Positions 15,920 through 37,127 are shown, counted from the stretch's first letter. The stretch is 64,000 nucleotides of DNA from Candidatus Zixiibacteriota bacterium (GCA_024280775.1 JAJRPM010000004.1:391054-455053), one strand, 5' to 3'. Translations and numbers: made by a program. The notes: generated by a model not told the origin, from the letters alone.

Positions 15920-18115
15920 CTAATTAAAGAAGTTCCAGGTAATCCAATACCAACTGTAGCGCCCTATGTAATCGTATCCTTCACGCGCCTGGAATTGGGC
16001 GTTGAGTGAGTTTTCAAATACATAGTTGAAAGTGAAGTCTTTGATACGAAACGCGGCGCGATAGTTGATTACCGCCTGCTTACCAAGCAGACTGCCGTCA
16101 TAGCCGAAATACTCCCCGTTATAGGTTACTTCTCCATAACCGGAGAAGTGTATTTCCAGAGGGCGATAATAGAAATCAAGCGCCAGTCCGGAGAATAGAT
16201 TGTAATCTGGTGAATAAGCAGGTTGCGCGGTTGAGTCATACTCTGAATTGTAAATGGCCGCCGAGGAGTTCCACACTAACCAGGACGTCAGCGCCAGGCG
16301 CTTAGTAACAGTTGCGCCGAAGAAGGTGAAGTCCTCATTGATCGGCCTATAGAGCAAACCGCTAGATGTCGGCGAGGTTCGCCAGTTGATTCCATCTGTA
16401 ATCTTGCCACCGGTGATTGAAAGTGTCAGTTGCTTAGCGCCCGACCCTATACGCGCTTCTGCTGTTGCTGTGTATTGCGCCTCGGGAGTTAGACTACCAT
16501 TGCCCGACTGCTCGAGAGTTCCGACAGTTGATTGTGTAACTGGAGCTTCAGGTGGCAAATCCAATTCATATTGTCGCGGGAAGACTGGAGTGACACCTAG
16601 CGCCAAAGTAAATGAACGTCCCGGAGCTACAGATACAAACCCCAGGTTCACTCTTGGTTGCACATCATACCCTCCCGCACCAGACGCGGCGATTTCACCG
16701 AAAATGAATGAGGAGTTTAGCCCACTCTGGAATTCACTTCGGTTCGCCAATATCCTTGGAGGATGTACCGCTGAAGTCGGCAATTCAATTTCGGTTAGCG
16801 CATCACCGCCAAGCCGCACTAGCGCTTTCAGCGAGGCGTCACCAAGTTTGCGTTCATTGCTCCCTACTTCAAACTCCAGCTTCTCTTTTGATGCGCTGAG
16901 ATTGACTTTGAGCATTTTCGTAGAGCTACGATGATTCCAAATTGCGCTGAAACCGTTTTCAATGCGATCAAGTCTTTGACTATAGGGACTCGAAAGCGCA
17001 TCAAGTCCTGATTCTGAACGCTGGTGACGAAACTCCACACCAAGTGAATTGTTGTTTCCCGCTTTTCTTTCAACTCTGGCTACTATATCTCTGTCGCGTC
17101 TATCGCGGTTGAACTTCCTGTTTAGCGATTGAGGTTTGTAGGCGATGTTGGCTTTGCGCCGGTAGAGCCTAACTGAAGTTGTTATGCGCCAGTTTCTCTT
17201 GTAGGGAGCCTCAATTTCCCAAAACTGATGACTGGCGTCATCATTGGCCAATAGAGAGCCAAATTCAGTCTTGCGAAAACCAAGCGCCGCTGTATAGGAG
17301 AATCCATTTGGCAAAGTCTCTGAAATCATACCCTTGGTATAGGCATATCCGAATGGGCCCTTTTGGATTTCCAGACGGGATTCCGAGCGAGGGCCATCGG
17401 CGCGTAGTTTTTGTAACCATATCCCCCCAACTCCGCTCTGTCCGCCGAGAAATGCGGCAACCGGACCGGTGAGGGTGTAAACATCACTAACTGAAGAAGT
17501 GGGAATGTCATTAAAGTCATACTGACCATCCTGCTCGGTCAGATGTTCCAAGGGCGCCAGAGGACGGCCATCGAAAATCGGTGTCACTCTTGGGCCCGGG
17601 ACTCCAAAAGCGGAGACAGTGTGACGCGCCGGAGTAGTTAGATAGTCTACTGTAAAAAATGATCTGTCGGCTCGAAAGAAATCTCCGGCGTCATGATAGA
17701 AAGCTTTGCCAATGTTCTTATTCTGCTCACGTTGCGCGCCAAGCAACATGGCCGCGGCATATTCGTTGAAACGAAAGGGGTTGATGGCGCTTACAGTATC
17801 TACCTGGTTTGCGGCATCGATTGAATCAAGCATACGCTCGGCAATAATTGCTGACGAATCCGGACCTGTCCGAATATGCAAGGAATCAATGATTGCTGAT
17901 GTATCAGAGAGCGTGTCTCCCGAAAGTATAGCGCTGGAATCTGTGGTAGTGGAGTCAAGCGCCTGCGATGTATCAGGCGGCGGAGAATCTGTTTGGGCAT
18001 GTAGCTCGGATACTACGGCAAAGACTAACAGAGTAAGAACAATAAGCGTGCTTCGGCATAAGCGTATGCAGAGCTGAATTCCGCTTGTCTCAGGTTTATC
18101 GCCGGACGCAGACAT
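15920..18115 (-). CDS. TonB-dependent-receptor-like outer membrane beta-barrel
   Basis: It has a signal-like N-terminus and a Ser/Thr/Asp-rich linker. A plug-like segment follows (FGVPGPRVTPIFDGRPL ... DFNDIPTSSVSDVYTLTGPVAAFLGGQSGVGGIWLQ). The rest is a long stretch of alternating beta-strand pattern ending in an aromatic-rich C-terminus. Confidence 0.6.
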   Translation of the reverse strand: MSASGDKPETSGIQLCIRLCRSTLIVLTLLVFAVVSELHAQTDSPPPDTSQALDSTTTDSSAILSGDTLSDTSAIIDSLHIRTGPDSSAIIAERMLDSIDAANQVDTVSAINPFRFNEYAAAMLLGAQREQNKNIGKAFYHDAGDFFRADRSFFTVDYLTTPARHTVSAFGVPGPRVTPIFDGRPLAPLEHLTEQDGQYDFNDIPTSSVSDVYTLTGPVAAFLGGQSGVGGIWLQKLRADGPRSESRLEIQKGPFGYAYTKGMISETLPNGFSYTAALGFRKTEFGSLLANDDASHQFWEIEAPYKRNWRITTSVRLYRRKANIAYKPQSLNRKFNRDRRDRDIVARVERKAGNNNSLGVEFRHQRSESGLDALSSPYSQRLDRIENGFSAIWNHRSSTKMLKVNLSASKEKLEFEVGSNERKLGDASLKALVRLGGDALTEIELPTSAVHPPRILANRSEFQSGLNSSFIFGEIAASGAGGYDVQPRVNLGFVSVAPGRSFTLALGVTPVFPRQYELDLPPEAPVTQSTVGTLEQSGNGSLTPEAQYTATAEARIGSGAKQLTLSITGGKITDGINWRTSPTSSGLLYRPINEDFTFFGATVTKRLALTSWLVWNSSAAIYNSEYDSTAQPAYSPDYNLFSGLALDFYYRPLEIHFSGYGEVTYNGEYFGYDGSLLGKQAVINYRAAFRIKDFTFNYVFENSLNAQFQAREGYDYIGRYSWYWITWNFFN

Positions 18116-18168: not shown

Positions 18169-20445
18169 TTAGCGAATAACCAGGACTTTTGTGACTTCAG
18201 AATGCGCCAGATTCCCTGAGCCATCGACAATTTTCTGCAATACTATGTAAACACCGGGAGCAACTTTTACTCCGGATTGATTAGTCAAATCCCAGGTTAC
18301 TGATACTTGAGTAAACGCGGGGCCGCTGGCTTGTGACAGGTTATCACGCACTAACTCTCCGGTCTCGGTGAAGATAGAGACATTGAGTGTCAGTTCGCCA
18401 GAGTTTCGCACCAGCGGATCGCGCAGGGCTTCAAAAATTACCTGATCGTTTCCGGGGAGAACTGGATTTGGGTATGGTGTGCGCACCGAAAAAGGCTGTG
18501 AGACATTTTGGATGGCATTAGAACTATCCTGCACGACATAGGAATAGGGATACTCGGCTATTCCGGCAGAGCTCTCATAGTCACGAGGATCCAGTGAGGT
18601 TTGCGTCACAATTAGCATCACATCAGAATAACGAGCAGGGTCTGGAAGAACGACACCCGGGGCCAGATTTTCTACTCTCAGGTAAATACTGTCAGGCTGT
18701 CCATCATTAAGAGCGCCGGGATTCAACGTGTCGATTACTACAGTGTTGTAACAGACAAAAGAATCAACAAGATTCTGAACAGTCGCGTCTAATTCCGCTT
18801 CATTTATCAATAGGTTGGTGTCAATAACCAGCTTGGTAAACGGCGCGCTAATTACTACAGCCGTATCAAATTGGTTCTTCGGAATAGCAACTAAAGACAA
18901 ACTGCGCTCAAATCCGGCGAATACCAGGGCAGTAGGCACAGATAGCAATGGCTTGAAACAACCATCACGAACGCTGAGAACATCGTGCATGAAAACAAAG
19001 CTATTGGAGTTTGATTGCGGAGCCGGTTGCAATGCATTGAATGGCTGGGGCGCTACCGGATATGAGCTGTGGATGGGTCCGAGGACAATTGTATCAACAG
19101 TCCTATTGAAAACTCCCGGCTTGAAGATAGTGTCTCTAATTGTAGGATAAAACTCTCCTTCTTCAAAGCCGAATCCAGCGGGAGCGAATTTTGCTCTTTC
19201 ACCCGATAGAGCCAGCGCAGCGCCGAATTCCTGGAAGGCGCGCCTGAAGCCATACTCACCATTGGTAAAAGCAGTCAGCGCCGAGTCAACCGCCCCTAGA
19301 AAATCTGGTCCGGGGGAGCCACAACCAAGCCAGGTTCCTCTAACAATCTCAGGCCCGAACTTATTTGTCAGCCAAATCGGGAATATGCCCATAGCATAGG
19401 GGAAATCACTACTAAAAGAGAATGTTTCTAGAGACACATGGGGAGCATCAAACGGAATACTCGTGGAGGAATTGAACAAGTAAGCATAGTAATCATTGAT
19501 ATCGTCATAGATGTACTCTTCCATCGAAACCGCTGACATCTCAAACCAAAACTTCCTTGCAAACCCCGCCTGAAACTCAAACTCTGTCTCATCAATTCCA
19601 AAATGAATAGCATGAAAGTATTCGTGCGCTACTGTCACACGTACGGCATCGAGCGGTTTCTTTCGATAGTCATTTACAGCGCTGTAGCCTGCTTCAACGT
19701 AATCATTGTCCAAGATTATGTATGAAGCTCTCGACCTTGAGAGAGGGAAGCTGATAAAGTGACCAAGAACAGTATCAGCGGCAACCGTCGCCCCAAAAAA
19801 ATTCCCGCCGAGGTTTACGAAATAAACGTCATACAACGAATCAGGATTTTCAGCGCTTATTGAGAGGCCATCATTGGGCGGCGCAGGATACTCCAGATTC
19901 TTGCTACCCGCGCCTCTAGGGCCTTCAATAATATTCCATGCAGAATCAAAGATATCACCAGAAACGTTGATGAAATCCGGAACACCATCAGGTCCGCCAA
20001 CTCCCAGCGGACCTGAAAGATCAATGTTCGCATTCTTGATGGCGTTAGTTCCGGTTGTGTCAAAATGTAATTTGAAACGACCTTCGGGAGAATCGTAGGT
20101 AGCTTGCATTAGCGCCCTGTCGAATATACCCTGTACAGATGTGCGCAAAAGCGGATTCATGAGATTCGAATCGAAATTCGTATTTGCTATCGGAGTTCCA
20201 CATTTGAGAGCTCGTTCTGCCACTGCGGACTTTTTCCCGGAAAAGTCCAAACCGGTTAGATGCGCATACAAGGTTTCCTGTTCGGCGAGCGGCATTCTGG
20301 TGGCGCCTGGGTAAACAGGCTTTGTTGCCGAAACTGCTGTTTCTACGAATCCTAAAGAGAGAACGCAGGAAACAAGGGACGCTGTTAGTAACGCAATTGA
20401 GATAGAAGGTGTTCTTAATCTAGCCAATTTGAAATACTCTTTCAT
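18169..20445 (-). CDS. Secreted HExxH metalloprotease-like protein with a T9SS C-terminal sorting domain
   Basis: It has a signal peptide, a zinc-binding-type motif (VAHEYFHAIHFG), and a C-terminal roughly 80-aa T9SS-type tail (...VAPGVYIVLQKIVDGSGN...KVLVIR). Confidence 0.6.
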   Translation of the reverse strand: MKEYFKLARLRTPSISIALLTASLVSCVLSLGFVETAVSATKPVYPGATRMPLAEQETLYAHLTGLDFSGKKSAVAERALKCGTPIANTNFDSNLMNPLLRTSVQGIFDRALMQATYDSPEGRFKLHFDTTGTNAIKNANIDLSGPLGVGGPDGVPDFINVSGDIFDSAWNIIEGPRGAGSKNLEYPAPPNDGLSISAENPDSLYDVYFVNLGGNFFGATVAADTVLGHFISFPLSRSRASYIILDNDYVEAGYSAVNDYRKKPLDAVRVTVAHEYFHAIHFGIDETEFEFQAGFARKFWFEMSAVSMEEYIYDDINDYYAYLFNSSTSIPFDAPHVSLETFSFSSDFPYAMGIFPIWLTNKFGPEIVRGTWLGCGSPGPDFLGAVDSALTAFTNGEYGFRRAFQEFGAALALSGERAKFAPAGFGFEEGEFYPTIRDTIFKPGVFNRTVDTIVLGPIHSSYPVAPQPFNALQPAPQSNSNSFVFMHDVLSVRDGCFKPLLSVPTALVFAGFERSLSLVAIPKNQFDTAVVISAPFTKLVIDTNLLINEAELDATVQNLVDSFVCYNTVVIDTLNPGALNDGQPDSIYLRVENLAPGVVLPDPARYSDVMLIVTQTSLDPRDYESSAGIAEYPYSYVVQDSSNAIQNVSQPFSVRTPYPNPVLPGNDQVIFEALRDPLVRNSGELTLNVSIFTETGELVRDNLSQASGPAFTQVSVTWDLTNQSGVKVAPGVYIVLQKIVDGSGNLAHSEVTKVLVIR

Positions 20446-29022: not shown

Positions 29023-29052
29023 CTTCAACATCCTCAGTAAACACACTCACAT

Positions 29053-29089
29053 ACAAAAAGAGCCGGGGCCTTAGTTAGGCCCCGGCTCT
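29053..29089 (-). terminator. Rho-independent terminator of the cytochrome module
   Basis: A perfect 12-bp GC-rich stem, AGAGCCGGGGCC (29059-70) with GGCCCCGGCTCT (29078-89), and a 7-nt loop. On the minus strand it is followed by TTTTTG. It lies 25 nt after the stop at 29114. Confidence 0.85.
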
Positions 29090-29113: not shown

Positions 29114-31231
29114 TTATCGCCTTAGCGAATATCCGTTGCTGTTGAGAGGCGGCGCGCCATTCGGGTTGCCGGTATTGAGGAAATTGATGGAAGATTTTAA
29201 TAGTCCGACAGTGTAGTCTGTGTTGTGGATACCTTCAGATCTGTCTTCTTCGACAAACTTGAAGTTGTAAACTGCGCCGGCGGAATCTGCTGTTGTTACA
29301 GTCACACTTAGCGGCGTACCTGACGCATCGACCAGATTCGCGGCTATTAGTAAGACCTTCAAACTATCAGCCAGTGAGTTTATCTCATCCTGAACACCTT
29401 CAATTGTACCATTGCCGTTGAAGTCCACGTCAGCTAACACGTTGAAATCTGAGATAGAACCATTGTGACAATTCGGGTCATTGCAACCACCGGTGTTCTG
29501 GAAATTGCGCGTCTTGTCGTGCATTATCCAAGTATGTCCTCCAGTGAATGTCGGAACTCCACCGTCCATGTGACATTGTATACATCCCTCGTCGGTCACA
29601 TTCGTATGCGCAGAGTTGCCATAACTGTACCCGGCGTATTCATATGCGTTCACGCCAATCAACATATCAGCCTGATTGCTATGGTGCGGCCCCCAATAGG
29701 CGCTGAGTGTCGTATTGGCGGTTACGTATGTACTCGCGTCCTGACGACTCTGGTGACAAGAGGCGCAAAGATTCGCGGGGCCTTTGTCAAAGGTCGCGCC
29801 GTTGGCCAAAGTAGCTGGAGTTTCTACTCGCAACTTGAAATCGCCGTTAGTGTGTGGCGCATGGCAGGTGAAGCAATTGATAGATGAGAAATGGTCGCCG
29901 GTGGCAGTTCCACCAGCCAGGTTCGCCACAAATCCTTCACTGGTGTGACACTTCTCACAAGCGGCATAGAAGGATTTGTTGTTGCGGTTTCTGTCTATGT
30001 TGTCACCTGAGGCGTGTTTAGAATTCTGCCATTGTTCACCCTTGGCCAACAGGAAGACATCCTTGTCTGAGTGACAGCTGAAACAACTAGTCGAAATATC
30101 CGTTTGTTCCACATGCACCCTACTTACATTAGCCGCCGCCCAGGTCTTGTCCTTATCAGAGTGACATTTCAGGCACGAGTAATCAAGTGTCAAATATCCA
30201 TTAGCAAACTTTCCATCCGCAGTAAACATTTCGGCGCTCGGATCGGTGTTGATTTGGAATAGATGTGACGGCACATCGCCTGAATAAGTTGCCAAATCAC
30301 CTATTGCGGATTTGGCTGCTTTGGGCATGTGGCAATCAATACACTCCGGTCCATTTGGATCCGCCTTGTGTTGGGTAATAGAAGTATTTTGGAAAGTATT
30401 GTATTCCTTGATGTGACAGTTCTCGCAATTTACGTTGATCGCTTGATCTCTATTAGGATTCAACGGATGCAGACTCTCATGCACATCGTGACAATCCACA
30501 CATTGAAGCGCTCTGTGTTGACTGCTGGCCATTTCATTCCATTGCTCGTGATGTCTGATGAACCCTCCGCTGGCCGGGATTGCGTTGACATCCCCACGAA
30601 TGTGACACTTACCACAGCCCTCGTTGGAGCGGTCGATTTTCATAGCCACACTCAGTGGGTCAGACTCATGCGCCTCACCCGGACCGTGACATTCTTCACA
30701 TTGGATGCCATTGGCTTCCCAGGTGCCAATAAGACCAGGTTTGCCTTCTTGATTGCCCACTGGTTTGTAGTTGGTCATGTGACACGGACCGCAATCATAG
30801 GGTTTGGTCTCGCCTGAGTGATATGCCACCCAGCCACCGGTTTCCAAATTGTATTGCACTTGATCACCAGTGATGATGAAACCATCATTGTCGATGAAGC
30901 GCGCCTTCCACCTGAAGCCACCGATAACTTTATCCACGTCAGCCCAATTCACACCAGGAGGCGGAGTCGGTACCGAGGAATACGGATAATAACCCGCTTG
31001 CTGGACATCCGAAGCCTCGTTGAGCTTGTATGGATGACCAGTCTTCATGAATTCTGTATACTTGGCCTCATGGCAACCGGTGGAACCGCAACTGGAACTC
31101 CCCATGTATGAAGCGGTAGCTGGTGTAACGGTTTTTGTGATTTCGTTTGTTACTGTTCGCTCGCAAGCAATGGAAACTGCCATAAATCCAATGGCTATTG
31201 TCCAAACTAATAGAGCATGTTTCTGTTTCAT
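29114..31231 (-). CDS. Multiheme c-type cytochrome lipoprotein (12 CxxCH plus 2 CxxxxCH)
   Basis: The signal peptide ends in the lipobox-like AVSIAC. I counted 12 CxxCH motifs. There are also two CX4CH motifs, CGSTGCH (31070-31090) and CNDPNCH (29465-29485). The C-terminal roughly 115 aa is heme-free and carries a Ca-loop-like DVDFNGNGTIE. Confidence 0.9.
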   Translation of the reverse strand: MKQKHALLVWTIAIGFMAVSIACERTVTNEITKTVTPATASYMGSSSCGSTGCHEAKYTEFMKTGHPYKLNEASDVQQAGYYPYSSVPTPPPGVNWADVDKVIGGFRWKARFIDNDGFIITGDQVQYNLETGGWVAYHSGETKPYDCGPCHMTNYKPVGNQEGKPGLIGTWEANGIQCEECHGPGEAHESDPLSVAMKIDRSNEGCGKCHIRGDVNAIPASGGFIRHHEQWNEMASSQHRALQCVDCHDVHESLHPLNPNRDQAINVNCENCHIKEYNTFQNTSITQHKADPNGPECIDCHMPKAAKSAIGDLATYSGDVPSHLFQINTDPSAEMFTADGKFANGYLTLDYSCLKCHSDKDKTWAAANVSRVHVEQTDISTSCFSCHSDKDVFLLAKGEQWQNSKHASGDNIDRNRNNKSFYAACEKCHTSEGFVANLAGGTATGDHFSSINCFTCHAPHTNGDFKLRVETPATLANGATFDKGPANLCASCHQSRQDASTYVTANTTLSAYWGPHHSNQADMLIGVNAYEYAGYSYGNSAHTNVTDEGCIQCHMDGGVPTFTGGHTWIMHDKTRNFQNTGGCNDPNCHNGSISDFNVLADVDFNGNGTIEGVQDEINSLADSLKVLLIAANLVDASGTPLSVTVTTADSAGAVYNFKFVEEDRSEGIHNTDYTVGLLKSSINFLNTGNPNGAPPLNSNGYSLRR

Positions 31232-31280
31232 AAGCGCCCCCTAACTCCTTGTAGTAGCATCCCTCTCCAGGGATTCCTCT

Positions 31281-32903
31281 TTATAATTGAATGTTCTTCT
31301 TTAGATATAGCTCAAAAATATTTCCAGTGTAAAATTGGTCTGCGAATAGAAAGTCATCGAAATTCTGCGCGGTGTATTTGAAACCTGCGCTATAGTCAGA
31401 TGTCACTTCATACGCCGCCTCGAGCTCCAGATTGAAGCGCTCGATATTCTGGTTTCTGCGGCTTCGCTGATATGACCCACCCAAACTCAGATTCAGCTTA
31501 TCGAACGTGACAGGCTTCACACGCGCTCTGATCACATTATCTGAAAACTCATAAGTGTCCTCTGCGCTATTGTTCTGAAACTTACCAACGTAGTACGAAT
31601 AGGTAACCGAAACAGAGCCATACTTTTTCGATTTTAGATTCGCTGTCGTGGTAATAACATTGTAATTGACACGAGTCTCTATGTTCGGATTCGTTAGTGT
31701 GTCACGGATTGAGAGCGCCGGGTCACGGTTTGTCGTTTTTCCACTCCAGCGCATTGAAACATCACCCCAACCTTTGTCTCGGTATTTGACAGTGACTTTT
31801 TGTCTGTAGGCTGTCAGGTCACCAGTTTGGGTTGCTCCATTGTTGACATTCTTGTCACGCAGGAAAAACTCGCCGTTGGCGCTGAAATGTTTCTTATCGC
31901 GCAACCAACCACCGATTATTATGCCGTTTGAGGTGGTTCTCTCACTGAGATCATCTGAGATACGATTCTCATAACCCAAACGAAGTCCATAACGACCGCG
32001 CCAGCTTTTTGCCAGAGTCAGCGCGTTGACAACATTGTCGGTTTCAGCGAACTGTCCTGAGCTGTTGTTTGTGCGGCCAAAGGTAAACTTGTAAGTAGCG
32101 CTCACTCTATTCGGCAATGACGCTCTAGCTATTGCCCAGCCAAGTTTTGTTTCCAACTCCTGAGCTCCGACATCAAGTTTGGCACGTCGGTAGGTGTAGC
32201 CACTGGACAGTGTTAGACGATCCCAACCGAACCGGCGGACGCCAGCGCGAATGTTGAAATTGTCGGTTGTCCTATCGGCGGCGCTCCGCGCATTATCGCT
32301 AAGCTTGGAGTTCCGGTATTCCACTCGAAGCTCTCCGTGGTGATCGAATGCCCTAGCCCCGATATTGTATGTCGTGTTTTGGTAATCTACTCTGTAAGAA
32401 GTGGTGTCAGCCCGCGACTGAAAAACATCAGTGAAGACACCCACCCGGTCAGTCAGCGAGAATCCTCCAAATAGTTCAGCGTTTCTCGAAGCGTTAACTG
32501 ACGCAGAACTACGGAATGACTCACGACGAACCGGGTCACTCGCATTCGCGCTGTAGATTCTCTGATTCCTGTCGTGATGCACATTCAACGAAAACGCGCC
32601 CGGTTTGAAGAGGCTTACTGTTTCGTTGCGATTCTTCAAAGTGGCATTGGTTATATCTGCGCGCAAACCAAGTCCATTTGCCCAAAAGTAGGAGAAGTCA
32701 TTAACACTAATGCCAAGTCCTTCGTAGAGGTCGAATGTCTTCTGGTTAACAGCCCGACTTCCTTCTTCGTCAGTGAGGACATACCCCAACTTTACGGTTC
32801 CACCGCCCGTTTGGGCTAGTAACGAATTCGATACCCCCGATAGCATCAGAAACAGAGCGGTTGACAGCGCTAGTATGATTATTCTTTTGACTGCATATTT
32901 CAT
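31281..32903 (-). CDS. Predicted outer-membrane beta-barrel (porin-like) protein
   Basis: A signal peptide (…SNSLLAQ) is followed by about 500 aa of alternating hydrophobic/polar dyads rich in Y, R, N, S and G, with no Cys and no TM helices. The start lies 1 nt after the upstream cytochrome stop. Confidence 0.7.
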   Translation of the reverse strand: MKYAVKRIIILALSTALFLMLSGVSNSLLAQTGGGTVKLGYVLTDEEGSRAVNQKTFDLYEGLGISVNDFSYFWANGLGLRADITNATLKNRNETVSLFKPGAFSLNVHHDRNQRIYSANASDPVRRESFRSSASVNASRNAELFGGFSLTDRVGVFTDVFQSRADTTSYRVDYQNTTYNIGARAFDHHGELRVEYRNSKLSDNARSAADRTTDNFNIRAGVRRFGWDRLTLSSGYTYRRAKLDVGAQELETKLGWAIARASLPNRVSATYKFTFGRTNNSSGQFAETDNVVNALTLAKSWRGRYGLRLGYENRISDDLSERTTSNGIIIGGWLRDKKHFSANGEFFLRDKNVNNGATQTGDLTAYRQKVTVKYRDKGWGDVSMRWSGKTTNRDPALSIRDTLTNPNIETRVNYNVITTTANLKSKKYGSVSVTYSYYVGKFQNNSAEDTYEFSDNVIRARVKPVTFDKLNLSLGGSYQRSRRNQNIERFNLELEAAYEVTSDYSAGFKYTAQNFDDFLFADQFYTGNIFELYLKKNIQL

Positions 32904-32904
32904 A

Positions 32905-33924
32905 TCATCCTCCTATCTCATCAAGCGGATGACATGTCGCCTCGAAACAATCCCTGAAGTAGCCCACCACACTTTGCAGGTTAGGTCGGAGAAAATGTTT
33001 GTCGGTGAATGATCCGTGGATATCTGAGTGGCAAGTGACACAGGTGCGATTATTGGCGATTCCGCCGTGCTCGGTCTCGTGTTTCGGTGGTTTGACGTGA
33101 CACTGTAAGCAAACATCATCCGAACGCTCTTTGAGGAGAAAGTTGGATTCGCTTCCATGCGGATTGTGACACTCCAAACATCCGTCACCCTCGGTTGTGT
33201 ATGTAACCGTCGCTTCATGCTCGTAGGGAAATGGACCTGTGTGTTCTGCGTGACAGTTTCCACACACGCCACCTGAACTTGAAATTACTCCGCCTATATC
33301 AGCGCCGGTAAAATCGTGGCAACTTAGACACAACGTATTCCCTTCGCTTACCGGATGTCTTGATCTGCGATCAAACTCAAGCTCGATATCCGAGTGACAT
33401 GACAAACACAATTCTTTTTCTGGCGCTATAAGGAGCTTCTTGGCGTTTACATCGGAGCTATGAACACTGTGACAATCCAAGCATCCCAACTCCCCGTCGA
33501 TATGAGCATTGAATCCTCGCCCATCGAGTTCAGTGTGAGGCATATGGCAATTAGAACACAGGGCTGTTTGGTTTGCAGGGTCCAGATTTGTTGGATTGGT
33601 GATGTTCTCCGCTGAAGGATCTTCCACATGATTCGTCGCCCCCATGTGACATGACGAGCAACTCAATCCGCCGAGATCAGCTATCGCATCGGCGTGAGCT
33701 GTGTGTTTCAGACTTGGAGCGCTTTCTTCATGGCAGTCAGCGCAAACCGATGATTCTACCTCCGGTGAATCAGAGAGGTTTGCCAGCGCCGGGTACCCCC
33801 CGATAAACCCCAGCGCCATGGCAAACACTACAACTATCGCAAGCGCCCCCAATATCCACCTTAGCCAGGCTTCGCGGCCCTGATCAACTATTCCCTGCTG
33901 TCCCAAAATACTATTCTTCGACAT
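32905..33924 (-). CDS. Decaheme c-type cytochrome (10 CxxCH plus 1 CxxxxCH) with an N-terminal hydrophobic segment
   Basis: I counted 10 CxxCH motifs. Paired-motif spacers of the MtrA/DmsE kind are present (GPFPYEH..., CLECHNPHGSESNFLL). The terminal motif CFEATCH is at 32929-32949. The N-terminal TM or signal segment is WILGALAIVVVFAMALGFIGG. Confidence 0.9.
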   Translation of the reverse strand: MSKNSILGQQGIVDQGREAWLRWILGALAIVVVFAMALGFIGGYPALANLSDSPEVESSVCADCHEESAPSLKHTAHADAIADLGGLSCSSCHMGATNHVEDPSAENITNPTNLDPANQTALCSNCHMPHTELDGRGFNAHIDGELGCLDCHSVHSSDVNAKKLLIAPEKELCLSCHSDIELEFDRRSRHPVSEGNTLCLSCHDFTGADIGGVISSSGGVCGNCHAEHTGPFPYEHEATVTYTTEGDGCLECHNPHGSESNFLLKERSDDVCLQCHVKPPKHETEHGGIANNRTCVTCHSDIHGSFTDKHFLRPNLQSVVGYFRDCFEATCHPLDEIGG

Positions 33925-34447: not shown

Positions 34448-35326
34448 ATGACGAAAGACATACAACAGAGTAGTTCTCTTGAACAGATTCTCAACACTAT
34501 CGGCGAGTTACCTAGCTCCCCGGCAGTAGTTAGTCTGGTGATGGGAATGACTTCGGATTTGAATACTGATGTGCGCGAGTTATCGCGAGCGTTATCCTCA
34601 GATCCGGCAATGGCGGCTCGCGCTTTGCGGCTGTCGAATTCTCCATTCTATGGACGACCGGCAGATGTCAGCTCAGTCGAGGAGGCAGTGCTGGTTTTGG
34701 GCTTCTTCACAGTTCGTTCTTTGGTGGTCGCCACTGCAACCTATGACTTGTTCAAGGGTGACGGTCAATCAGAGAATCAGGAGAATCTAGCTAGCGCTCT
34801 ATGGGAGCATTCACTGGCAACTGCAATTGCTTCCCGGCAAATAGCTCAATTGATAGAGCATAACAATCTTGAAGAGTGTTTCCTGGCCGGACTAATGCAT
34901 GACATTGGCAAGCTTATTTTGCTGAAGAAATTTCCGGAGCAATACCCAGAGATGATCGAGGGGGCTCAACCGGGAGTAAGCAGTATCCCCGGTGAACGTG
35001 AAGCATTCGGATTCGGTCATGACGAACTCGGCTCGGCTCTCTTGAGTTCATGGTCTTTCCCTGAGCTGTTGGTGAGCGCTATCGCCGACCATCATGACCG
35101 CACTGCCCAGCAGGAAAATGAGCCAATTAGTATTTCAAATATAGTGAATCTAGCCAGCGCAGTCGCGCGAGAAATCGGCGCAGGATTTGGAGAATCCGAC
35201 ATTGAGGAATTCTCCGCAGAGAATCTATGGAGCGCCAAGGCGCTTTCTATCGACGATGAGAAACTCGCGGAGATTCGTGACAATCTAGCTGAAAACTTCC
35301 AACAGGAACGCAGTCTATTTGTCTGA
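34448..35326 (+). CDS. HDOD-domain signalling protein
   Basis: Contains LPSSPAVVSLVMGMTSDLNTDVRELSRALSSDPAMAARALRLSNSPFYG ... AGLMHDIGKLILL. Confidence 0.85.
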   Translation: MTKDIQQSSSLEQILNTIGELPSSPAVVSLVMGMTSDLNTDVRELSRALSSDPAMAARALRLSNSPFYGRPADVSSVEEAVLVLGFFTVRSLVVATATYDLFKGDGQSENQENLASALWEHSLATAIASRQIAQLIEHNNLEECFLAGLMHDIGKLILLKKFPEQYPEMIEGAQPGVSSIPGEREAFGFGHDELGSALLSSWSFPELLVSAIADHHDRTAQQENEPISISNIVNLASAVAREIGAGFGESDIEEFSAENLWSAKALSIDDEKLAEIRDNLAENFQQERSLFV

Positions 35327-35353: not shown

Positions 35354-36922
35354 TTGCAATTAGGCATAGCGTTAAAAATAACACAGATGAAGAAATCCAA
35401 ACTACATGCCGCCTCTCGCTTGCGACTTGATCAGTTTCTGGATAACGGCTCCTTGCCATCTATTCCTCAGGTGCTTTTCAAGATTCGCGAGGTCAGCGAG
35501 GACCCCAAGTCCGGAGTTGCTGACTTAGCCAATGTAATCCTTACCGACCATCAACTGACAACCCGTATTCTCCGAATGGCGAATTCCGCATACTATGGTG
35601 AATATGCGGGGAAAGTTACTCGTGTGACACAGGCGGTTACATTGATGGGATTTCGCTCGGTGAGAAATGCGGCGTTGGCGCTGGCGATTTACTCAGCGGT
35701 GGAGAAACTTTCGAAATGCACAGCCTTTGATTTTCCGACGTTTTGGACTCGCTCAATTGGAGTCGGGGTTATTGCCAAGCAATTGGCCCTGAGCAATGGC
35801 TACCGTTCGTCAGAAGAAGCATTTATCACAGGTTTTCTGCACAATATCGGCCAGCCGCTTCTCGCGGCGGTTTTTCCCCGGGAATATGATGAAATACTGA
35901 TGAAAAACCCCACACCAAATTCTCTACCGGACTTTGAAGAAGAGGTATTGGGGCTGAATCATCTCATAGCCGGTGGCTGGCTGGCGCGCAAATGGAAACT
36001 TCCGCTCAAACTGGTGGCGCCAATCGAAGAGCATGATAGACGCTCATACAAGGAAAACGAGCGCGCAAGTGAACGGCTGACAGATTATGTCTATGTCGCA
36101 AACAGACTTTTTCCACATGTGATGATCCGTAACACCGGGCAAGGCGGATCGTTGGCCCGCACACAGAGTGAAGCATTGAGTTTGCTCGATTTGAAGCCTG
36201 AGAATATCGATGCACTGGTTGAGGACGGTCGCGCATTGATTGTTGAAATCGCTTCTGAATTGAATATGCAAATCAGCGAGGGAGCTCAGGAGAATCCGTT
36301 AGAATCTGTAGCGGCCCTCAATTCAAAACTGGCGCTGCGTGAATTGCAACTATCTATCATCCAAGGCGCTACTGAGGCTTTGATGAAAGCGAATTCTGAT
36401 GAGGATGTTTTAGGAATTGTTGTCGATGGAGCGTTCCGGGGTTTGGAGCTTGGGGCGATGGTGTTCTTCGAAAAATCTGAGAGCAACGGAGAATTCACCG
36501 GGATGCTGGGCTATGGAAGAATCAACCCTGCAAGGAGTCAATTAGTTATTCCGCAGAATCAGAGTAACGCCGACCTATTTGACAAGCTAAACGCCGGGAA
36601 TATCTATCAGGGGAAATCTTTGCCAGCGACCATTGATGGTGTGCAAAGCAACGCCGCTCTAACAGCTGATGAAAACTTTGACCCCGAAGCAACCCTGTAT
36701 ATTCAGCAAAACAACAAGTTTGTGGCTATACCTTTGCACGTAGAAGGCGAATTGAAATACATCGCCATCGCAACTCCTCATACAGGCTATGACCACGTAG
36801 ACGAACAAAAAGTCCGCACCCTCAGCTCACTGTGCTCACAAGCATCACTATCCCTGGTGAGCCTTTCGCTTCGTCGCCGTCTCAAAGATGGCGAAATGCA
36901 GCGCATCAACGTTTCACACTAA
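35354..36922 (+). CDS. HDOD-domain protein with a C-terminal GAF-like region
   Basis: Contains LPSIPQVLFKIREVSEDPKSGVADLANVILTDHQLTTRILRMANSAYYG ... GFLHNIGQPLL. The C-terminal roughly 200 aa is uncharacterised. The true start may be the Met at 35387. Confidence 0.8.
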   Translation: MQLGIALKITQMKKSKLHAASRLRLDQFLDNGSLPSIPQVLFKIREVSEDPKSGVADLANVILTDHQLTTRILRMANSAYYGEYAGKVTRVTQAVTLMGFRSVRNAALALAIYSAVEKLSKCTAFDFPTFWTRSIGVGVIAKQLALSNGYRSSEEAFITGFLHNIGQPLLAAVFPREYDEILMKNPTPNSLPDFEEEVLGLNHLIAGGWLARKWKLPLKLVAPIEEHDRRSYKENERASERLTDYVYVANRLFPHVMIRNTGQGGSLARTQSEALSLLDLKPENIDALVEDGRALIVEIASELNMQISEGAQENPLESVAALNSKLALRELQLSIIQGATEALMKANSDEDVLGIVVDGAFRGLELGAMVFFEKSESNGEFTGMLGYGRINPARSQLVIPQNQSNADLFDKLNAGNIYQGKSLPATIDGVQSNAALTADENFDPEATLYIQQNNKFVAIPLHVEGELKYIAIATPHTGYDHVDEQKVRTLSSLCSQASLSLVSLSLRRRLKDGEMQRINVSH

Positions 36923-37040: not shown

Positions 37041-37127
37041 TGGTGCCGAAGGGGGGACTCGAACCCCCACGTCCTTACGGACACTACGCCCTGAACGTAG
37101 CGCGTCTACCAATTCCACCACTTCGGC
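37041..37127 (-). tRNA. tRNA-Leu (anticodon CAG), CCA encoded
   Basis: I folded it by hand. The acceptor stem is GCCGAAG/CTTCGGC. The anticodon stem is CTACG/CGTAG with loop TTCAGGG. The long variable arm is GTCC-GTAA-GGAC. The T arm is GGGGG-TTCGAGT-CCCCC. The 3' end is ACCA. Confidence 0.9.

Follow-up and report, generated by a model that had tools for sequence, protein, structure and literature searches.

Which proteins might carry electrons across the outer membrane of Zixibacteria? The question is raised by three adjacent genes of a Candidatus Zixiibacteriota bacterium, which encode a multihaem cytochrome (gene 1), a β-barrel (gene 2), and a lipoprotein multihaem cytochrome (gene 3). They lie in a stretch of 64,000 nucleotides (nt) (GCA_024280775.1 JAJRPM010000004.1:391054-455053), the whole of which was analysed and is called the window here. 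In subsurface and hadal sediments, Zixibacteria and their FCB neighbours have repeatedly been singled out as iron cyclers, via generic hidden Markov model hits only (PMC8478452, PMC10809760), and Zixibacteria are the dominant predicted iron reducers of ferruginous hadal sediment (PMC10809760). The three-gene module offers a concrete three-protein candidate for outer-membrane electron transfer in these bacteria. A first-pass annotation, made from the DNA alone, had proposed that a lineage of the FCB type here carries a divergent porin-cytochrome conduit whose composition is non-standard, and our analysis supports this: the product of genes 1 to 3 is probably a trans-outer-membrane electron conduit of the Mtr type, belonging to a subfamily that is confined to the FCB group.

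Gene 1 is an MtrA homologue with an additional haem site

Gene 1 contains ten CxxCH motifs and one C-terminal Cx4CH motif, giving 11 haem-binding motifs. The NCBIfam model for DmsE decahaem cytochromes (TIGR03508) aligns with gene 1 over model positions 3-256 of 258 and scores 155.3 bits. In a phmmer search the best structure match was solved MtrA (6r2q_A, E 3.9e-24; residues 59-305 against 65-323), and all ten MtrA haem motifs are co-linear with motifs of gene 1 in the alignment. Chain A of 6R2Q is taken as MtrA because the entry is titled "Structure of the Mtr complex"; the file names this chain "Cystathionine beta-synthase", which looks like a labelling quirk.

Past the tenth MtrA haem, gene 1 continues into a C-terminal extension that carries the 11th motif (Table 1). 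Among the family members from related loci this motif stands at one alignment position in 22 of 22, with Cx2CH or Cx4CH spacing in 20 and CxCH in two. At L006:8979-9929 and L020:1815-2768 it has shrunk to C-W-C-H, a spacing that is atypical for c-type haem attachment. The family also has 11 conserved histidines outside the motifs, which are candidate distal ligands, to match its 11 motif histidines. Because the additional motif is found throughout the family and the conserved non-motif histidines are equal in number to the haem sites, gene 1 is read from its sequence as an undecahaem MtrA homologue and not as the exactly-ten-haem DmsE type. The inner partner had earlier been described as a ten-haem protein, and this has to be revised to 11 conserved sites. 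No description of an undecahaem MtrA-type protein was found in the literature searched. The Uet undecahaem system was considered as a counterpart of gene 1 and rejected, as its architecture is unrelated.

Most relatives of gene 1 have an ordinary cleavable signal peptide of 25-35 residues that ends a few residues before the first haem. In the window protein a 22-residue N-region precedes a hydrophobic stretch of ~21 residues, after which a putative cleavage site falls between ALA and N; the long N-region and the hydrophobic stretch are common to its close clade. Cleavage at this site is likely.

Gene 2 is a compact barrel remotely related to MtrB

Gene 2 has no cysteine, and its AlphaFold model (pLDDT 77, pTM 0.68) consists of an N-terminal helix, where a signal peptide is predicted (Table 1), followed by 26 β-strands. 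This agrees with the earlier proposal of an exported outer-membrane barrel, and MtrB has also been reported as a 26-strand barrel (PMC12133095). When the model was compared with the Protein Data Bank (PDB) by Foldseek, the top match was MtrB (6r2q_B, E 4e-13, TM-score 0.67); the runners-up were 22-strand TonB-dependent receptors (E ≥ 1e-9, TM-score ≤ 0.53), about four orders of magnitude behind. A profile built from 63 barrel sequences had MtrB 6r2q_B as its sole significant PDB sequence match (E 2.4e-6), with co-linear segments along both proteins. The Pfam family MtrB_PioB (PF11854) is matched by nine of these 63 members, with a best E of 1.3e-6, and some family members also match the generic OMP_b-brl and Porin_4 models.

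The barrel family is rare, with nine relatives among 5.8 billion proteins in a word-indexed search. An exhaustive profile search of 1.84 billion returned 168 cluster representatives, and the full-length ones are all about 505-557 amino acids (aa) long. With 540 aa (~510 mature residues) against 695 aa for MtrB 6r2q_B, the window barrel is shorter than the MtrB type, as had been noticed from the sequence, and it is smaller than typical MtrB/PioB proteins, which have about 650-700 aa or more and long surface loops. Because the model has 26 strands, MtrB leads the Foldseek matches, the 63-sequence profile finds MtrB, and a share of the family matches PF11854, the predicted barrel is best described as a deep, short-looped, remote branch of the MtrB/PioB kind that is missed by current family models.

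Gene 3 encodes a two-module lipoprotein cytochrome related to OcwA

Gene 3 contains 12 CxxCH and two Cx4CH motifs, 14 in all. Exact counts of haem motifs in genes 1 and 3, like the absence of cysteine from gene 2, agree with those first given. The former description of the outer partner as OmcB-like with 12 haems was not borne out, as there are 14 sites, the lineage is that of OcwA/NrfA, and likeness to OmcB is unsupported. The proposed lipobox, AVSIAC, stands: it fits the PROSITE-style pattern, its cysteine (Cys23) is invariant in 60 homologues, and 51 of the 60 fit the pattern.

The protein has a two-module build (Table 1), since homologues with one half alone exist. Window gene 3 was compared with the downstream genes of L006, L013, L017-L024, L026, and L027. 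Downstream 8-haem proteins of 372-395 aa match its residues 1-375, while 5-6-haem proteins of 334-365 aa match residues ~380-700; one 16-motif downstream protein is made up of the N-module and a different tail. Nearly all forms that start with a lipobox share the leader GC-ERKVTNE or a close variant, L001 having GC-TRETVT, and this leader may be a sorting or docking signal.

The best solved sequence relative of gene 3 by phmmer is OcwA (6I5B, E 5.1e-10), a surface terminal reductase of Thermincola potens. Foldseek matches of the AlphaFold model (pLDDT 87) are led by OcwA as well (E 3.6e-12, TM-score 0.27/0.38), followed by the S-layer undecahaem cytochrome of Carboxydothermus and then by MccA. 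The TM-scores are low, and gene 3 is therefore placed in a lineage and not matched to a detailed fold. The structures of MtrC, MtrF, and OmcA were absent among its Foldseek matches at E ≤ 10, and no OmcA/MtrC family model was among its NCBIfam matches. Its sole link to the MtrC/OmcA family is the domain II/IV model PF22113 (44 bits), which is also recorded for decahaem homologues of the gene 1 type. By sequence, gene 3 is a cytochrome of the OcwA/NrfA lineage and not of the MtrC/OmcA family. That its two closest solved relatives are both cell-surface electron-transfer cytochromes counts in favour of a conduit.

The long form of gene 3 has 16 conserved histidines outside its 14 haem motifs, so bis-His ligation is possible at all 14 sites, as in electron-wire cytochromes. 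Neither CxxCK nor Cx11-17CH, a range that covers the Cx15CH of MccA, is present. Some homologues (~840 aa) contain Por_Secre_tail (PF18962), which we take to be a type IX secretion sorting domain; this would imply an extracellular location for the gene 3 family.

In every comparison made (L001, L002, L008, L009, L011, and L014), gene 3 has changed more slowly than the other two proteins of the module: its identity is 83% in the closest locus, compared with 70%, and 50-58% in distant loci, compared with 38-45%. Such slow evolution is unusual for an exposed protein, as a surface cytochrome is presumed to be. A recent transfer of gene 3 had been suspected from a cluster member of at least 90% on the L008 contig and was rejected, the true identity being 83% and gene 3 evolving slowest throughout.

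Distribution and conserved neighbourhood

One genome per GTDB species was scanned, which gave 21 loci, and three further metagenomic contexts were added. All 21 are metagenome-assembled genomes (MAGs) and are labelled as Zixibacteria, "Ignavibacteriales" (TPA), Calditrichota, Latescibacterota, Chitinivibrionia, unclassified FCB, or unclassified bacteria. Wherever the upstream DNA was usable, the barrel gene is directly preceded by the undecahaem gene, and in all of these loci but L025 it is directly followed by the gene for a lipoprotein cytochrome of the gene 3 type. This synteny is kept from 71% down to about 33% barrel identity. The type of outer cytochrome differs between modules and the undecahaem-barrel pair is constant. 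At L025:7863-9713, on the complete Zixibacteria chromosome CP070824, the barrel match spans residues 9-448 only and a cytochrome gene is missing after it; degradation or rearrangement of this copy is possible.

In six loci (L002, L012, L014, L015, L016, and L027) membrane cytochrome candidates adjoin the module. In one type, which we take to be of CbcL-like architecture, an FdnI-type cytochrome b is joined to a multihaem protein. The other type is NapC/NrfH-like, with 6-7 haems and about 505-527 aa, and is presumably ImcH-like. The architectures of CbcL and ImcH are known from the outward pathway of Geobacter, and these neighbours are candidate connections to the quinol pool. At L002:5336-8831 an 11-haem domain fused to an FdnI-type cytochrome b is found together with a NapC/NrfH-like protein of 6-7 haems. 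The suggestion that homologous clusters might be tied to a soluble-substrate reductase was followed up, and no molybdoenzyme or other soluble-substrate reductase stands beside the module in the loci examined; several adjoin the CbcL-like and NapC/NrfH-like membrane cytochromes instead. A reductase link through the distant gene 3 homologues P0233 and P0225 was likewise rejected, as these are stand-alone secreted cytochromes.

Two loci have further cytochromes nearby. Directly downstream of the module, L023:11631-17557 encodes a GSU2203-family decahaem protein, a GSU2204-family CXXCH (seleno)protein of 573 aa, and a protein with at least 15 haems that is truncated by the locus end. This second cluster possibly represents a further type of conduit in that MAG. 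At L001:14268-21165, 3-10 kb downstream of the module, there are multihaem cytochromes with 4 and 8 motifs and a barrel of the Toluene_X/FadL type.

Proposed mechanism and alternative explanations

In the mechanism that we propose, the gene 1 protein would be exported to the periplasm, and its 11-haem wire would insert into the lumen of the 26-strand gene 2 barrel as MtrA does in MtrB. The extra C-terminal haem would then sit at the outer mouth of the barrel and pass electrons to the gene 3 protein, a lipid-anchored and presumably surface-exposed cytochrome with 14 haems. This protein would contact insoluble or colloidal partners, for which Fe(III)/Mn(IV) oxides, humics, electrodes, and other cells are candidates, while the periplasmic end would be fed from the quinol pool via membrane cytochromes encoded elsewhere in the genome. 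Net outward flow, meaning mineral respiration, is the more likely direction because of the large surface cytochrome and the CbcL/ImcH-like neighbours, and the wire is probably reversible.

Several observations weigh against a conduit of this kind. The DmsE score of gene 1 is below the curated cutoff of 192.2 bits, and the hydrophobic stretch of its clade could be an uncleaved anchor. The window barrel alone matches nothing in Pfam or NCBIfam at E ≤ 1, a nine-sequence profile of it gave no match to PDB sequences, and its homology to MtrB rests on the larger family profile and a medium-confidence model. The fold matches of gene 3 have low TM-scores (0.27-0.38) and an enzyme, MccA, is among them. 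No member of the barrel family in the 21-locus scan comes from a cultured organism, and the window contains no inner-membrane multihaem partner and no multihaem open reading frame (ORF) besides genes 1 and 3.

Were there no conduit, gene 2 would form a plain channel for diffusion or uptake, and the cytochromes would be periplasmic redox proteins with no tie to it but the shared operon, gene 3 being anchored to the inner leaflet of a membrane. The missing direct family match of the window barrel and the OMP_b-brl and Porin_4 matches of some relatives would suit such an arrangement, yet it is highly improbable: undecahaem and barrel genes are strictly adjacent over a range of about 35-100% barrel identity and in several phyla, the barrel family was never found without a cytochrome partner in the loci examined, and diffusion porins, usually with 16-18 strands, are far narrower than a barrel of 26 strands. 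The possibility that the barrel is a generic substrate porin had been raised at the outset, and it is answered by the predicted strand number and by MtrB being both the best structural match and the sole significant profile match. Alternatively, the MtrAB-like pair could feed a catalytic gene 3 protein, as in DmsEFAB, with an enzyme of the NrfA, MccA, or octahaem-reductase type that reduces extracellular nitrite, hydroxylamine, sulfite, tetrathionate, polysulfide, or another soluble or colloidal substrate. We consider this very unlikely. The octahaem sulfite reductase MccA is a fold neighbour of gene 3, a short-form homologue (L013:2398-3579) has a weak NCBIfam match to the tetrathionate-reductase octahaem family, and OcwA is itself of a NrfA-like lineage and reduces nitrite and hydroxylamine in vitro; the slow evolution of gene 3 might also suit an enzyme. 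However, gene 3 has neither of the two unusual haem-motif types sought, its conserved histidines suffice for bis-His ligation of all 14 haems, and its top two fold matches are mineral-facing surface cytochromes. Either half alone also serves as the partner elsewhere, and interchangeable electron-transfer modules therefore fit better than a single active site.

The direction of flow is a separate matter. An inward conduit like MtoAB or PioAB, in which extracellular Fe(II) oxidation or cathodic uptake supplies a caa3 oxidase or reverse electron flow, is unlikely, though less so than a catalytic gene 3. The MtrAB core is a device that Fe(II) oxidisers use too, cores of this type are known to be reversible, and FeGenie treats MtoAB as ambiguous because direction is unreadable from sequence (PMC7005843). 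Iron oxidation was the reading that Castelle et al. preferred for the MtrAB-like cluster in Zixibacteria RBG-1, and the scoring of DeMMO MAGs from Zixibacteria and Ignavibacteriales credited them with both directions. The window itself encodes complex I and a caa3-type oxidase, as first annotated, which would be in keeping with inward flow. Against this, a multihaem lipoprotein partner is present in all loci but one, whereas MtoAB and PioAB typically have no dedicated large surface cytochrome. The membrane cytochromes that neighbour related modules are CbcL-like and ImcH-like, and no HiPIP, cupredoxin, or Cyc2-type gene adjoins the module.

Layout of the locus

The ORF listing confirms the initial description of three co-directional genes, including their lengths and the spacers of 1 nt between genes 1 and 2 and 49 nt between genes 2 and 3 (Table 1). 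Together they form a unit of ~4.8 kb. The strong terminator that had been placed after gene 3 was also recovered: 25 nt past the stop codon, a 13-bp stem with 10 G-C pairs and a 5-nt loop precedes the T-run.

Table 1. Coordinates of the module and its parts, counted from the first letter of the window
Feature	Residues	Nucleotides	Strand	Basis or detail
Gene 1, MtrA/DmsE-like multihaem cytochrome		32905-33924	-	339 aa; ORF listing
Gene 1 C-terminal extension past MtrA haem 10	306-339	32908-33009	-	34 residues
Gene 1 11th haem motif, CFEATCH	326-332	32929-32949	-	Family alignment
Gene 2, Cys-free outer-membrane β-barrel		31281-32903	-	540 aa; ORF listing
Gene 2 predicted signal peptide	about 1-30	32814-32903	-	AlphaFold N-terminal helix, aa 2-26
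Gene 3, lipoprotein multihaem cytochrome		29114-31231	-	705 aa; ORF listing
Gene 3 lipobox cysteine	23	31163-31165	-	PROSITE-style pattern
Gene 3 N-module	~24-375	30107-31162	-	8 haem motifs
Gene 3 C-module	~380-700	29132-30094	-	6 haem motifs and three-helix bundle
Intrinsic terminator closing the three-gene unit		29049-29089	-	Stem 29089-29059, then T-run

Two smaller elements were set aside. The hairpin at 31259-31274 in the 49-nt spacer, which the first-pass annotation had pointed out, is present but is noise as a feature: the folding of the spacer does not differ from that of shuffled sequences (z = -0.01), the region has about as many terminator-like matches as chance would give (5 against an expected 4.8), and the spacer sequence is not kept in the two closest loci. 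A sigma-70-like promoter upstream of gene 1 (34001-33972) was discounted, with 7 promoter-like matches found in the region against 7.6 expected.

Two proteins with HDOD domains, related to HD signalling domains, are encoded at 34448-35326 (+) and 35354-36922 (+), divergent from the module across an intergenic region of 523 nt; a regulatory link with the module is possible. Elsewhere in the window, two adjacent large ORFs, 15920-18115 (-) of 731 aa and 18169-20445 (-) of 758 aa, are without a Pfam match at E ≤ 1e-5. A tRNA-Leu(CAG) at 37041-37127 (-) is the sole RNA gene in the window by ARAGORN and Rfam.

Implications

It is possible, and we put it forward tentatively, that the module represents an uncharacterised class of FCB conduit in which an 11-haem wire and a minimal 26-strand barrel are combined with interchangeable modules of the OcwA lineage (N, C, or both fused), docked or sorted via a tether made up of the lipid-bearing cysteine and ERKVTNE. 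If so, the surface reductases of Gram-positive bacteria would be linked in evolution to the Mtr conduits of Gram-negative bacteria, and a plug-and-play outer interface would be defined. Features of use are a barrel missed by Pfam and NCBIfam, an extra haem site on an MtrA-like wire, and an outer cytochrome akin to Gram-positive surface reductases. The module could help to improve iron-gene annotation tools and to study how varied outer cytochromes dock on an MtrAB-type core. Being compact, with a barrel of only 540 aa, it lends itself well to trials of heterologous reconstitution.

Comparison with known systems

The closest overall parallel is with MtrCAB and MtrDEF of Shewanella (6R2Q), in which a periplasmic multihaem wire, a 26-strand barrel, and a surface lipoprotein cytochrome are combined, the surface site being a prediction for the module described here. 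The gene order of the module had been thought to match no known system, but the same A-B-C order is found in Shewanella mtrDEF (PMC8805035). The homology of gene 1 with MtrA extends across the ten haems of MtrA, from which it differs in the conserved 11th site, and MtrB is the best structural and profile match of the barrel. Unlike MtrB, the window barrel is short, cysteine-free, and on its own without a match to Pfam MtrB_PioB; Shewanella-type MtrB carries an N-terminal CXXC. Gene 3 belongs to another family than MtrC and OmcA and differs in architecture, with 14 haems. Zixibacteria, Ignavibacteria, and Bacteroidetes go unmentioned in the canonical MtrCAB survey of Baker et al., a silence in keeping with the lack of an MtrC-family partner in the module.

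MtoAB, PioAB, and DmsEF(AB) share the MtrA-like and MtrB-like core in A-then-B order, and they illustrate how one core is used with different outer partners and in either direction of flow. Their A subunits are decahaem and their barrels larger, and they either have no known surface cytochrome (Mto, Pio) or have a molybdoenzyme (Dms). The outer partner in the window module, by contrast, is a multihaem lipoprotein.

For gene 3 the closest solved relatives are OcwA (6I5B) and the S-layer undecahaem cytochrome of Carboxydothermus ferrireducens (6QVM), both of which are terminal electron-transfer cytochromes at the cell surface. The C-terminal helical bundle aligns as well. Both relatives come from Gram-positive hosts that have no outer membrane or barrel, and they contain 9 and 11 haems against the 14 motifs of gene 3, with TM-scores of 0.2-0.38. 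OcwA has a nine-haem, open-coordination architecture, whereas the histidine count of gene 3 allows all sites to be bis-His. Gene 3 also differs from both in being a lipoprotein of two modules that occur separately as well.

The OmbB-OmaB-OmcB and Ext clusters of Geobacter follow the same design of porin, periplasmic cytochrome, and lipoprotein cytochrome, and OmcB is a lipoprotein with 12 haems. Clusters of this porin-cytochrome (Pcc) type have been reported in Ignavibacterium album and Zixibacteria (PMC4245776, PMC7005843). The periplasmic partner in Geobacter is octahaem (PMC4245776), unlike the MtrA/DmsE-like gene 1 with its 11 motifs, and the gene order differs. Neither OmbB nor OmcB was named among the Pfam and NCBIfam matches of the module, with no dedicated comparison made.

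Within the same phyla, MtrAB homologues have been predicted from metagenomes before, so that the earlier wording "possibly undescribed" was overstated. An MtrA/MtrB-like cluster was reported in the first Zixibacteria genome, RBG-1, which was said to lack homologues of extracellular cytochromes (Castelle et al. 2013; PMC3903129), and Arbour et al. (2020; PMC7399161) described a porin-cytochrome cluster of the MtrB-like type from an Ignavibacteria MAG, both at the level of annotation. FeGenie also flags porin-cytochrome operons in Zixibacteria (PMC7005843). No description of the 11th haem, the compact 26-strand barrel, or the modular OcwA-type partner was found in the literature searched. The kind of conduit is therefore already known from MtrCAB/MtrDEF, MtoAB, PioAB, and DmsEFAB, and what appears to be new is its composition: an A subunit with 11 haems, a 26-strand barrel of ~510 mature residues, and an interchangeable lipoprotein of the OcwA lineage with a conserved leader.

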